Shown piece by piece: positions 6,234 to 17,697 of a DNA stretch of 32,000 nucleotides (position 1 is the first letter of the stretch; every line of letters starts with the position of its first letter). The stretch is from NCBI GenBank assembly GCA_964406965.1, contig CAYOTT010000004.1:115790-147789 (forward strand), written 5' to 3'. This stretch comes from an uncultured Desulfurococcales archaeon (lineage in GTDB: Archaea; Thermoproteota; Thermoprotei_A; EX4484-217-1). Below the pieces are notes generated by a model. It saw only the letters and a list, made by a program, of their open reading frames with translations. It had not been told where the DNA came from and ran no database searches. A program made the position numbers and the translations under genes.

Positions 6234-6283
6234 ATGATGAACCAACACCTACCTGAATAAATGATGAATTCCCTGCTGACTGA
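6234..6283 (+). ncRNA. Box C/D sRNA (2'-O-methylation guide)
   Basis: Box C ATGATGA 6234-6240; 12-nt guide ACCAACACCTAC; box D' CTGA 6253-6256; 4-nt spacer ATAA; box C' ATGATGA 6261-6267; 12-nt guide ATTCCCTGCTGA; box D CTGA 6280-6283. This is the canonical archaeal architecture and spacing. It starts 20 nt after the upstream stop codon. Confidence 0.85.
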
Positions 6284-16288: not shown

Positions 16289-16408
16289 GCCGGGGTAGCT
16301 CAGCTAGGTAGAGCGCCGGGCTGTTAACTGGCTGGTGGGAGGTTCGAGTCCTCCCCCCGCCGGGGAGAAACCCGGTGGTCGGAGGTTCGAGTCCTCCCCC
16401 CGGCGCCA
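16289..16408 (+). tRNA. tRNA-Asn: tRNA-Asn (anticodon GUU) with a 43-nt intron at canonical position 37/38 (16327-16369); CCA encoded
   Basis: Acceptor GCCGGGG/CCCCGGC, D arm GCTC/GAGC, anticodon stem CCGGG (16316-20) / CCCGG (16371-75), loop CTGTTA|intron|A, T arm GGAGG-TTCGAGT-CCTCC, G73, CCA. There are 7 nt on each side between the anticodon stem and the intron helix CTGGC (16328-32) / GCCGG (16359-63), which fits bulge-helix-bulge geometry. Confidence 0.85.
16327..16408 (+). repeat. Tandem duplication (period 43 nt) of the tRNA-Asn 3' half: degenerate copy 16327-16365, functional copy 16370-16408
   Basis: An ungapped alignment of the two 39-nt units gives 31/39 identity by hand count. 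This includes the 22-nt identical run GGAGGTTCGAGTCCTCCCCCCG (16338-59 versus 16381-402). Confidence 0.85.
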
Positions 16409-17525: not shown

Positions 17526-17531
17526 TTTATA
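17526..17531 (+). promoter_or_regulatory. Candidate TATA box for tRNA-Trp
   Basis: TTTATA starts 34 nt upstream of the mature 5' end. Confidence 0.4.
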
Positions 17532-17559: not shown

Positions 17560-17697
17560 GGGCCCGTAGCTCAGCCAGGGAGAGCGGCGGGCTCCAGACC
17601 CGTTAAAGTACGGGTCTGCTGACCTTTAAGGGATGACTTAGGTCTGGAGCTGGGAGAGACCCGTAGGTCGGGGGTTCAAATCCCCCCGGGCCCACCA
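17560..17697 (+). tRNA. tRNA-Trp: tRNA-Trp (anticodon CCA) with a 61-nt intron (17598-17658 if placed at 37/38); CCA encoded
   Basis: Acceptor GGGCCCG/CGGGCCC, D arm GCTC/GAGC, anticodon stem GCGGG (17587-91) / CCCGT (17660-64), loop CTCCAG|intron|A, T arm GGGGG-TTCAAAT-CCCCC, A73, CCA. BHB: central helix CTCC (17592-95) / GGAG (17653-56) with AGA bulges at both junctions. Confidence 0.88.

Follow-up and report, generated by a model that had tools for sequence, protein, structure and literature searches.

The tRNA-Trp intron of a Desulfurococcales archaeon as a predicted methylation guide with a single K-turn

In an uncultured Desulfurococcales archaeon, the tRNA-Trp gene contains an intron that we predict to be a guide for the methylation of its own tRNA: judged from its sequence and from those of its relatives, it would be the Thermoproteota (Desulfurococcales) ortholog of the C/D guide found in euryarchaeal pre-tRNA-Trp, pared down to one K-turn. 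We give this reading a probability of roughly 0.8. The window (the whole stretch of 32,000 nucleotides that was analysed) had been described in an earlier note as part of an otherwise crenarchaeal genome, and this holds, as the window belongs to the Desulfurococcales; it is 93% identical across 8 kb to a Desulfurococcales MAG. The features on which the argument depends, all on the plus strand, are as follows.

17526..17531, plus strand: TTTATA, a TATA-box-like hexamer about 30 nt 5' of the tRNA start, read from the sequence as a candidate archaeal promoter
17560..17597, plus strand: tRNA-Trp 5' exon, G1 to G37 (Rfam tRNA match of 55.5 bits, and parsing)
17592..17598, plus strand: 5' strand of the bulge-helix-bulge (BHB), CUCC (17592-95) followed by the 5' bulge AGA (17596-98); 5' splice site between 17597 and 17598
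17594..17596, plus strand: anticodon CCA, from parsing of the 5' exon; C34 (17594) is a predicted 2'-O-methylation target
17598..17658, plus strand: intron, 61 nt, at the canonical 37/38 position (tRNA model match and parsing)
17598..17603, plus strand: ACCCGU, the start of the intron and a copy of the start of the 3' exon (pairing and covariation)
17607..17618, plus strand: D' guide, 12-nt spacer AGUACGGGUCUG (complementarity, covariation and N+5 ruler)
17619..17622, plus strand: box D', CUGA, the non-bulged strand of the K-turn (NNGA ruler; aligned to the CUGA of canonical introns)
17623..17631, plus strand: C-stem and loop, CC-UUUAA-GG, capping the K-turn (pair conservation and covariation)
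17632..17639, plus strand: bulged strand of the K-turn, G17632 and box C' AUGACUU (17633-39) (covariation, and MAFFT alignment to the canonical GUGAUGA)
17640..17651, plus strand: D guide, 12-nt spacer AGGUCUGGAGCU (complementarity, fixed spacing and covariation)
17652..17655, plus strand: degenerate terminal box D, GGGA, overlapping the 3' strand of the BHB (offset, and alignment to the CUGA of canonical introns)
17653..17659, plus strand: 3' strand of the BHB, GGAG (17653-56) followed by the 3' bulge AGA (17657-59); 3' splice site between 17658 and 17659
17659..17697, plus strand: tRNA-Trp 3' exon, A38 to A73 and the encoded CCA (Rfam tRNA match and parsing)
17660, plus strand: C39, in the 3' exon, a predicted 2'-O-methylation target

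The tRNA-Trp(CCA) gene extends over 17560-17697, with its intron at 17598-17658. The Rfam tRNA model matches 17560-17694 with 55.5 bits and an insertion of about 64 nt in the anticodon loop, and excision of 17598-17658 in silico leaves a 77-nt tRNA-Trp(CCA), which together with the parsing bears out the earlier statement that the gene reads as tRNA-Trp(CCA) once 61 nt are removed; ARAGORN made no call of a tRNA-Trp gene at 17560-17697. The intron boundary is ambiguous by 1 nt because an A stands at both 17598 and 17659. The short strings reported for the intron and its flanks (CTGA at 17619-22, GGATGA at 17631-36, CTCC at 17592-95, GGAG at 17653-56, and the AGA bulges) are all exact.

On either side of the internal boxes, the intron carries antisense elements of about 9-12 nt in which the target faces the fifth pair 5' of box D' or D. 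Upstream, ACGGGTCTG (17610-18) is the reverse complement of C35-U43; the slightly longer segment 17609-18 is antisense to nt 35-44 and in the precursor pairs with AG|ACCCGUA (17657-65), with G17614 paired to C39 (17660) at N+5 from box D'. Downstream, GGTCTGGAGC (17641-50) is the reverse complement of G31-C40 and, in the precursor, is antisense to G31-G37 plus intron nt 1-3, with G17647 paired to C34 (17594) at N+5 from box D. Since the intron opens with ACCCGT, a copy of the start of the 3' exon, the precursor also offers both complements without interruption (17591-17603); the ACC of this opening pairs with GGU (17641-43), so that the C34 guide duplex reaches over the exon-intron junction. 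Both guide duplexes thus cover exon-intron junctions of the unspliced precursor, and both exclude the BHB. Chance is a poor source for such a pattern: when the intron was shuffled 20000 times, a perfect complement of at least 9 nt to the 19-nt anticodon arm turned up 51 times, and a pair of them together with the boxes lies far outside what chance would give. One observation counts against the guide reading, namely that the MFE fold of the window's intron joins ACCCGU (17598-17603) to 17610-15 in a hairpin, which locks the C39 guide against the 5' exon-intron junction.

A scan for tRNA-Trp genes that placed no constraint on the intron yielded 70 distinct archaeal introns, and 43 of them, the window's included, share one layout that we call Thermoproteota-type (one of the 43 comes from a MAG labelled Methanobacteriota). 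They are mostly from Desulfurococcales, Sulfolobales, Ignisphaera, Thermogladius and Pyrolobus, and the layout runs from a 12-nt guide to nt 39 through nnGA, a CC..GG hairpin, G-AUGA-NNN, a 12-nt guide to C34 and a second nnGA to GGAGAG. The closest relative, from a Desulfurococcales MAG (L002), differs from the window's intron by one base. Pairing statistics were computed over 41 sequences. Guide and target are paired in 85.5% of cells, compared with 29-48% in slid registers, and their covariation score is 0.277 against 0.105 for shuffled data, a value reached in none of 500 shuffles. In the C39 guide, compensatory changes follow tRNA positions 42, 43 and 44, and the guide also co-varies with the last two nucleotides of the intron; covariation likewise links intron nt 1-3 to the three nucleotides that precede CUGGAG (AU20/CG10/UA10/GU1, with no unpaired case), and the spacing from AUGA to CUGGA is 7 nt in 43/43 introns. 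For the splicing helix CUCC:GGAG, 99.4% of cells in the 41 introns are paired, and the guide duplexes compete with this helix. An alignment of orthologs had been put forward as a check, and it comes out on the side of the guide: the guides, whose complementarity and N+5 spacing are exact in the window, are conserved and covary in the 43 introns, as does the K-motif; the N+5 spacings are conserved there too, and the BHB pairing is kept as well. The mutual exclusion of guides and BHB, also part of the original proposal, concerns a conserved helix.

The target in that proposal needs refining. The guides had been matched to the mature anticodon arm, and this fits the C39 guide, which matches precursor and mature tRNA about equally well. 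The C34 guide, by contrast, is better matched to the precursor than to the mature tRNA in 36/43 introns, with a duplex of 9.0 bp against 6.9 bp; covariation across the family shows that its predicted target is the unspliced precursor and not the mature anticodon arm.

The internal D'/C' element could, at the level of sequence, form a K-loop or a K-turn, and it matches the K-turn pattern nnGA-CC..GG-(G/A)AU-GA-nn; as read from the aligned introns, it is a hairpin-capped K-turn. The bulge is G-A-U and the tandem G.A pairs join G17635/A17636 to A17622/G17621. The closing CC/GG pairs are C-G in 41/41 and 39/41 introns and the inner pairs co-vary; the -1b:-1n pair is C-G in 41/41, the 3b:3n pair is formed in 35/41 by three pair types, and C-stem and NC-stem together are 82% paired, with a covariation score of 0.447 against 0.168 (0/500 shuffles). 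GAUGA is found in 42/43 introns. The GA of box D' is present in 43/43 parsed introns, a count that the parsing pattern itself imposed by demanding GA there, and when the position was measured again under relaxed conditions, with no motif required, NNGA stood at N+5 for nt 39 in 55/58 introns. The first two nucleotides of the box are variable (ATGA in 10, TCGA in 9, ACGA in 6, and others), with CTGA confined to the window and L002. Nucleotides 1-2 of box D' are 76% paired with the 2 nt that follow GAUGA (score 0.68); the canonical K-loop register, in which they would face U5/G6 of GAUGA, was rejected for the clade (34% paired, score 0.01, no covariation). A point against the clade register is that the window's own 3b:3n and 4b:4n are pyrimidine mismatches, C.U and U.C, and a canonical register with GGGAUGA (17630-36) is a possible alternative for the window and L002 only. 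The internal K-motif of the earlier note is therefore conserved and covarying, but as a hairpin-capped K-turn and not a K-loop, with box C' lying 3 nt further 3': in the clade this box reads AUGA-NNN (in the window, 17633-39) rather than GGATGA or xGAUGA. Likewise, the spacer CCTTTAAGG, taken for a palindrome, is not a true one, since only CC/GG, or at most CCUU/AAGG, can pair.

The known relatives of this element are the intronic C/D guides of euryarchaeal pre-tRNA-Trp, such as Pyrococcus sR50 and that of Haloferax volcanii (Clouet d'Orval 2001, Bortolin 2003 and Singh 2004, as reviewed in PMC7994747 and PMC6313347). Their canonical arrangement, C-g39-D'-C'-g34-D, was read from 44 introns fetched from metagenome contigs, which we tentatively assign to Thermococcales. 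Host gene and 37/38 intron position are the same as in the window, as is the element order g39-D'-C'-g34-D, and in both types the two spacers are exactly 12 nt and both targets stand at N+5; the string ACGGGUCUG-CUGA is identical in the window's intron and the canonical introns. Duplexes over the exon-intron junctions and competition with the BHB are likewise features of the euryarchaeal guide. The differences concern the boxes and the hosts. Thermoproteota-type introns have no 5' box C, often without space for one (1-12 nt before the guide); their box D is reduced to YKGA/GGGA and part-merged with a BHB strand; their D'/C' element is a hairpin-capped K-turn instead of a K-loop; and their box C' keeps only RUGA, its last nucleotides covarying in Watson-Crick fashion with D' nt 1-2. 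The hosts are Thermoproteota here, Euryarchaeota for the canonical guide. Since the canonical order is collinear with the window's, a circularly permuted C/D sRNA (box D-hairpin-box C) was rejected.

A box C (RUGAUGA) adjoining the roughly 12-nt spacer at the 5' end is absent from the window's intron, the bases at the expected site being CCGUUAA. Across the family, a GA at a fixed offset 5' of the 12-nt C39 guide occurs in at most 6/43 introns (linear) or 13/43 (circular), compared with 44/44 canonical introns. Restoration of box C by circularisation was rejected, as the circular context offers no GA at a fixed offset. The idea that the 5' exon preserves a trace of box C (CCAG|A) was likewise rejected: just 20/41 introns begin with A, and it is with the guide that this first nucleotide covaries. 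At the other end, GGGA (17652-55) lies exactly 12 nt past box C' and at N+5 for C34. The terminal box is never CUGA among the introns; its GA stands at the exact offset in 28/43, including 19/20 of those with tails of at least 9 nt (TTGA, TGGA, CGGA, GGGA, ACGA), and is missing from that position in 15/43. For this degenerate box D no partner strand could be identified, and pairing between box C' and the orphan box D was rejected (40% paired versus 38% in shuffles, no covariation). One K-turn is all that the intron can form. With box C absent and box D degenerate, the intron falls short of the four canonical boxes, and it matched no Rfam C/D family at the gathering threshold or at E<=10. The earlier note had seen neither terminal box: this is right for box C and for a canonical CUGA, but it overlooked the degenerate box D. 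Of its three suggestions for what such an RNA might be, degenerate guide and half-mer survive, given the collinearity with canonical guides, and dependence on circularisation does not.

These gaps suggest the most serious competing explanation, a partly decayed guide in which only the D' guide works, through the intact K-turn, and makes Cm39, while the C34 antisense and box D are relics or folding aids and Cm34 is made by another sRNA or a protein enzyme. The loss of box C and the inexact box D would fit, as would the stricter ruler for nt 39 (55/58 introns) than for C34 (41/58) and the Pyrodictiaceae, which retain the C39 guide and the K-motif and have lost the C34 guide. We nevertheless consider it unlikely. 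The core of the C34 guide is invariant and lies 7 nt from AUGA in every one of the 43 introns; the guide covaries with intron nt 1-3, the first pair is never unpaired, and such compensatory change indicates ongoing selection for pairing. Moreover, Methanomethylicia and Culexarchaeia show the reverse loss, keeping the C34 guide without the C39 guide; Cm34 is present in the tRNA-Trp of S. acidocaldarius; and a search of the 32-kb window found no other antisense to the tRNA-Trp anticodon region. One Thermoproteaceae MAG has lost the whole guide arrangement. Guides have thus been lost in some related lineages, and the function is therefore dispensable.

Under the favoured reading, in which both guides act, a working order of events can be proposed. 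After transcription, L7Ae would bind the hairpin-capped K-turn (CUGA 17619-22, the CC..GG cap and AUGA 17633-36), as sequence and covariation suggest, and Nop5-fibrillarin would, by homology, assemble next on the L7Ae-bound K-turn. The 12-nt segment 5' of D' would pair with the intron-3' exon junction AG|ACCCGUA, placing C39 at the fifth pair from D', and the 12 nt that follow C' would pair with GCUCCAG|ACC, at the junction of 5' exon and intron, so that C34 takes the fifth pair counted from GGGA (17652-55). Covariation shows both the pairings and their spacing. Fibrillarin would then 2'-O-methylate C39 and C34 on the unspliced precursor, both methyls being reported in S. acidocaldarius tRNA-Trp. 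The two guide duplexes would cross each other, and the C34 duplex would exclude the CUCC:GGAG helix of the BHB; methylation would therefore be sequential or in trans, before refolding to the splicing-competent form. The excised intron probably persists as a stable circular RNP that acts in trans on more precursors, as S. solfataricus data suggest.

The two methylations with which the guide claim was earlier said to stand or fall are on record, for S. acidocaldarius tRNA-Trp carries Cm34 and Cm39, the latter in the fragment A[mimG]A[Cm]Cp and labelled by the authors 'probably FlpA+Nop5+snoRNP' (PMC7668247). At present the analogy with P. furiosus is the sole ground for ascribing them to a snoRNP. 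The intron family described here probably accounts for the Cm34 and Cm39 of Sulfolobus tRNA-Trp: introns from Sulfolobales MAGs (L012, L030, L076 and L089) have the full architecture, and these orphan modifications gain a concrete candidate guide. In S. acidocaldarius, L7Ae RIP-seq enriched a single tRNA, whose gene is 132 nt long and is listed with 'many reads of intron' (PMC5539422, Table S1); this gene, Saci_0066 (complement 49180-49311 of strain DSM 639), is a candidate for tRNA-Trp. Methylation by aFib-Nop5 without a guide (PMC5558902) was set aside, as tRNAs are not substrates there. In S. solfataricus, according to Danan et al. 2012 (PMC3326292), the tRNA-Trp intron is a stable circle of 65 nt, two short stretches of which are complementary to positions 34 and 39, and is said there to be without C/D boxes. 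It is very probably the same element as the window's. To that account the present analysis adds the K-turn, the degenerate box D, the rulers and the covariation, and the published puzzle of a circular intron without C/D boxes would be resolved by a conserved K-turn with correctly spaced guides, found also in dozens of Thermoproteota-type orthologs.

The unusual stability of the S. solfataricus circle (PMC3326292) could also be turned to a different explanation, in which there is no methylation and the antisense and L7Ae-bound K-turn serve as an RNA chaperone or splicing control, holding a non-spliceable conformer or stabilising the circle. The exclusion of the BHB by the guide duplexes is what such a role would call for, and in H. 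volcanii the tRNA-Trp intron and its methylations are dispensable (PMC4090602). Yet a purely structural role leaves the exact fifth-nucleotide spacing and the 12-nt spacers, identical to canonical ones, unexplained, and Cm34 and Cm39 do exist in Sulfolobus tRNA-Trp; we regard this explanation as improbable. That CTGA, GATGA and the complementary runs arose fortuitously in an ordinary intron can be dismissed: such short motifs are common and some of the complementarity stems from the intron's ACCCGT copy, but a single 9-mer complement appeared in just those 51 of 20000 shuffles, and the architecture and its covariation recur in 43 distinct introns, collinear with canonical guides.

Efficient archaeal guide RNPs are generally described as requiring two juxtaposed K-motifs, and on this point the single K-turn of the intron counts against the guide reading. 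A conserved guide with one K-turn and no box C offers a natural test of the number of K-motifs that an archaeal C/D RNP requires, and the same intron allows the order of methylation and splicing conformers of a pre-tRNA to be asked. We tentatively raise the idea, to which we give rather less than even odds, that the intron is a natural 'half-mer', in which one L7Ae-bound K-turn directs both methylations, with C34 measured from C' via the Nop5 dimer, or in which two intron RNAs dimerise to give two K-turns per RNP. If either version were true, two juxtaposed K-motifs per archaeal guide RNA would not be universal in vivo, and the intron would provide a natural substrate for the debate over mono-RNP and di-RNP. 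Synthetic half-mer C/D RNAs (Xue 2010, via PMC6239191) likewise have one K-turn with a loop-closed C-stem, from which a single-stranded guide emerges; they are artificial and carry one guide, whereas the window's intron is natural, lies within a pre-tRNA, and has guides on both sides together with an orphan D-like box. On the predicted-guide reading, the range of self-targeting intron-encoded methylation guides would now include Thermoproteota as well as Euryarchaeota, and our comparison argues that the intronic guide is older than the split between them. A canonical stand-alone C/D box sRNA is encoded in the same window at 6234-6283 (AUGAUGA/CUGA/AUGAUGA/CUGA). Stand-alone archaeal C/D sRNAs share with the intron the 12-nt spacers, the N+5 rule and, presumably, the L7Ae/Nop5/fibrillarin machinery; the one at 6234-6283 has all four boxes, whereas the intron has D'/C' and a degenerate D only.

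The 61-nt intron of the tRNA-Trp(CCA) gene represents, in Thermoproteota, an intronic guide system already known; the feature is real and looks functional. The gene was left uncalled by ARAGORN on the window, and the Rfam tRNA model matches it with 55.5 bits at 17560-17694, with an anticodon-loop insertion of about 64 nt. The coordinates and strings reported in the earlier note all proved exact on re-reading.

Elements of the tRNA-Trp gene and its intron in the window.
17560-17697, + strand: tRNA-Trp(CCA) gene (Rfam tRNA match over 17560-17694)
17598-17658, + strand: intron, 61 nt; excision leaves a regular 77-nt tRNA with CCA encoded
17592-95 / 17653-56, + strand: CTCC / GGAG with AGA bulges, read from the sequence
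17610-18, + strand: ACGGGTCTG, reverse complement of C35-U43
17619-22, + strand: CTGA (box D'), read from the sequence
17631-36, + strand: GGATGA (box C' region), read from the sequence
17641-50, + strand: GGTCTGGAGC, reverse complement of G31-C40
17652-55, + strand: GGGA, degenerate box D, overlapping the splicing-helix strand

The first six intron nucleotides, ACCCGT, duplicate the beginning of the 3' exon, a point absent from the earlier note; both antisense targets therefore also run uninterrupted through 17591-17603 of the unspliced precursor. Owing to this copied ACCCGU, the minimum free energy fold of the window's precursor has the 12-nt segment 5' of box D' (the C39 guide) tied up with the 5' exon-intron junction, forming a 9-bp hairpin (17595-17618) in which intron cytidine 17599 sits in the 'position 39' slot. 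This hairpin is peculiar to the window and to L002, an uncultured Desulfurococcales metagenome-assembled genome (MAG) whose contig CAZLZO010000014.1 is 93% identical to the window over 8 kb, which bears out the initial impression of a crenarchaeal genome; the L002 tRNA-Trp intron differs from the window's by one base, and has ACCCG as in the window but C as intron nucleotide 6.

One genome per GTDB species was scanned with a pattern comprising only the D-stem, CTCCAG and T-loop of the tRNA body, leaving the intron and anticodon stem unconstrained, and at least 71 of the hits were genuine tRNA-Trp genes, their introns 42-70 nt long, which gives at least 70 distinct introns. Among the matches listed, a single architecture is common to 43 of 70 distinct introns, counting the window's; the carriers listed are Desulfurococcales, Sulfolobales, Ignisphaera, Thermogladius, Pyrolobus, unclassified Thermoprotei/Thermoproteota, and one MAG labelled Methanobacteriota. 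In this clade, 1-12 nt precede a 12-nt segment ending in YGGGUCUN, followed by nnGA, a CC...GG hairpin and (G/A)AUGA, and then by 2+5 nt, CUGGAR, NN, nnGA and a variable tail ending in GGAGAG ahead of the 3' exon ACCCG.

Pairing and covariation were computed on a gap-free, anchored alignment of 41 sequences (A1). In 85.5% of cells the proposed guide pairings are standard pairs, as against 29-48% when the registers are slid by 1-3 columns, and the guide segments named in the earlier note covary with their targets (score 0.277 versus 0.105 +/- 0.008 for shuffled alignments, reached by 0 of 500 shuffles). The C39 guide covaries with tRNA positions 42, 43 and 44 (at position 43: AU 35, CG 3, GC 2, UG 1) and, through its 3' end, with the last two intron nucleotides (UA 29, AU 8, GC 2); the three nucleotides directly 5' of CUGGAG, in the segment 3' of box C' (the C34 guide), covary with intron nucleotides 1-3 (first pair: AU 20, CG 10, UA 10, GU 1, none unpaired). 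Covariation with the intron's start and end points to selection across the clade for pairing with both exon-intron junctions of the unspliced precursor. The C34 guide averages 9.0 bp of duplex with the precursor versus 6.9 bp with mature tRNA, the precursor duplex being longer in 36 of 43 introns among the matches listed, and the C39 guide fits both substrates (means of 11.0 and 10.7 bp, respectively); in the window itself the two substrates are indistinguishable, since the intron starts with ACC. The bulge-helix-bulge (BHB) splicing helix, CUCC:GGAG, is paired in 99.4% of cells, and thus both of the mutually exclusive conformers first proposed, guide duplexes and BHB, are under selection.

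The D'/C' motif, read initially as a K-loop, is conserved and covarying, but in a different form. In clade introns CC directly follows the GA of the upstream nnGA and GG directly precedes GAUGA; the two pairs that close this hairpin cap are C-G in 41/41 and 39/41 sequences, with covariation at the inner pairs. The two variable nucleotides of nnGA covary with the two that follow GAUGA (one pair CG 15, UA 10, AU 8, UG 2; the other UA 17, AU 10), and together with the cap stem these pairs are formed in 82% of cells (covariation 0.447 versus 0.168, 0/500 shuffles). The canonical K-loop register, pairing the variable nucleotides of nnGA with U5/G6 of GAUGA, reaches 34% across the clade and shows no covariation. 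These patterns argue for a hairpin-capped K-turn in which a C-stem leads into a bulge of three nucleotides, (G/A)-A-U; the GA that ends GAUGA then forms tandem G.A pairs with that of nnGA, and a short Watson-Crick NC-stem follows. Box C' then reads AUGA-NNN (17633-39 in the window) and lies exactly 12 nt from the downstream nnGA, the canonical archaeal spacer. Among the matches listed, CUGA at D' occurs in the window and L002 only, and in both of them pyrimidines are mismatched in the NC-stem, which leaves the canonical register (GGGAUGA, 17630-36) as an alternative reading of the window's sequence.

Spacing was measured by relaxed, motif-free criteria on all 70 introns among the matches listed. 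Nucleotide 39 lies at the fifth pair from NNGA, as the N+5 rule for D/D' boxes has it, in 55 of the 58 listed introns having antisense to nucleotides 38-41, and GA offsets in the listed introns show a single peak (59 occurrences, at most 8 at any other position). The distance from AUGA to CUGGA is 7 nt in 43/43 listed clade introns. Counted from a downstream nnGA (TTGA, TGGA, CGGA, GGGA, GAGA or ACGA), C34 falls on the fifth pair in 28 of these 43, and in 19 of the 20 listed whose tail is at least 9 nt long. The most serious rival reading, a partly decayed guide that serves C39 only, draws on this degeneracy of box D and on the retention of a single guide in certain lineages; against it, selection on the C34 guide is clear from its covariation with the intron start and the fixed 7-nt distance.

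For comparison with the euryarchaeal four-box guide (canonical), we collected 45 distinct metagenome introns with UGAUGA near the 5' splice site, inferred to come from Thermococcales-like organisms. In 44 of the 45 the order is cggyg, RUGAUGA, 12 nt ending in ACGGGUCUG, CUGA, a short loop, GUGAUGA, 12 nt (cccgtUGGAGyg), CUGA and cccgaagag, that is, box C, nucleotide 39 guide, D', C', C34 guide and D, each spacer measuring exactly 12 nt. In a MAFFT alignment the window and clade are collinear with these introns, clade AUGA-NNN lying over canonical GUGA-UGA and the clade nnGA boxes over both CUGA boxes, which argues that the window's intron is a homolog of the canonical guide. Three changes set it apart from the latter: loss of box C, degeneration of box D, and a hairpin cap gained by the D'/C' K-loop. 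Neither terminal box had been seen in canonical form in the earlier note; a degenerate box D is present, and box C is indeed gone. Many clade introns have no room for it, with just 1-3 nt ahead of the C39 guide, and a GA at fixed offset upstream of the guide was found in at best 6/43 linear precursors and 13/43 circularised introns, compared with 44/44 in the canonical control. Restoration of box C by circularisation is rejected on these counts, and a circularly permuted sRNA is ruled out by the collinear order C-g39-D'-C'-g34-D.

Part of this had precedents. Danan et al. [quoted passage not shown] (2020, PMC7668247) assumed it by analogy. The latter report Cm34 in S. acidocaldarius tRNA-Trp, assign the fragment A[mimG]A[Cm]Cp in their supplement to Cm39 of this tRNA, and list its source as 'probably FlpA+Nop5+snoRNP, see in P. 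furiosus'; therefore both predicted products exist in a crenarchaeon. In L7Ae RIP-seq of S. acidocaldarius (PMC5539422 Table S1) the sole enriched tRNA is Saci_0066 (log2 enrichment about 3), an intron-containing 132-nt gene at complement(49180..49311) annotated 'many reads of intron' and adjoined by Sac-sR102 and an antisense RNA (PMC5539422); it fits as a candidate tRNA-Trp, its length being compatible with an intron of about 57 nt as in sampled Sulfolobales MAGs. A purely structural or splicing-control role without methylation would leave both the rulers and the published methylations unaccounted for, and a separate guide nearby finds no counterpart in the 32-kb window, where no second antisense element against tRNA-Trp was detected. 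Chance resemblance of motifs and complements is excluded, as a perfect anticodon-arm complement of at least 9 nt arose in 51 of 20000 shuffles of the window's intron and no shuffle of 500 reached the covariation score. The reading of the intron as a guide is upheld by conserved and covarying layout, guides and K-motif. We found no description of the crenarchaeal architecture in the searchable literature; what is new is its definition, with covariation over 43 distinct introns among the matches listed, as a single hairpin-capped K-turn with no box C, a degenerate box D and precursor-specific guides.

Sequence and covariation show the K-turn motif, the pair of duplexes across the exon-intron junctions, the spacing rulers (N+5 and 12 nt) and the competing BHB. 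By homology, L7Ae would bind the K-turn, Nop5-fibrillarin would assemble on the intron RNA, and methyl groups would be transferred to C39 and C34. Topologically, the two duplexes would cross into a pseudoknot, and in those clade members where the C34 target and the C39 guide are 0-1 nt apart, both cannot coexist in cis; the methylations would then be sequential, or occur in trans through another precursor or the excised circular intron. Given the fixed distance from C' to the C34 guide, the Nop5 dimer may serve to measure C34 from the C' side, or a dimer of two RNAs may position it.

Guide content varies in other lineages. Nine Pyrodictiaceae introns (L004, L019, L071, L079, L081, L086, L093, L099, L104) keep the nucleotide 39 guide (..CCGGGUCUG), nnGA, short loop and GAUGA, lack the CUGGAG guide for C34, and carry an additional upstream ACCGGUCC-like segment. 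Their mirror image is found in Methanomethylicia, Culexarchaeia and one 'Nitrososphaerota' MAG (L007, L038, L045, L046, L074, L075), which retain the hairpin-capped K-turn together with the C34 guide, with AGCUCUGGAGC pairing with the intron start AGCU, and have no antisense to nucleotide 39. DPANN-type introns place the C34 guide upstream of an nnGA-hairpin-(A/U)UGA K-turn, and Micrarchaeota-type introns (L031, L035) have the swapped order g34-CGGA-GGGCAACC-GAUGA-g39, so guide order around the K-turn is lineage-dependent. Besides the Micrarchaeota-type pair, the introns in this comparison are of the types Nanoarchaeia (L050, L064, L113, L119), Aenigmarchaeota (L058 and L062 so labelled, and L103, an 'uncultured archaeon' MAG with a near-identical intron) and Nanohaloarchaea (L006, L043 and L108 so labelled, and L094, an 'uncultured archaeon' MAG with a matching intron). 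The 47-nt intron of L032, a Thermoproteaceae MAG, lacks both antisense elements and GA boxes and has only a CCCCCG...CGGGGG stem and a GAAGAG end; at least one lineage of Thermoproteota has lost the guide.

Elsewhere the genome uses canonical boxes, as the window holds a textbook four-box C/D sRNA (6234-6283, +; AUGAUGA-12 nt-CUGA-AUAA-AUGAUGA-12 nt-CUGA) with no Rfam match at the gathering threshold. At 16289-16408 (+), ARAGORN and Rfam calls conflict and overlap on a tRNA-Asn(GUU)-like gene (fold z-score -5.4), whose 5' half (16289-16326) fits with a perfect 3' half at 16371-16408. The stretch separating the two, 16328-16369, repeats that 3' half in decayed form (T-arm and acceptor strand, 30/38 identical); at position 37/38, it may represent either an intron or the scar of a duplication.
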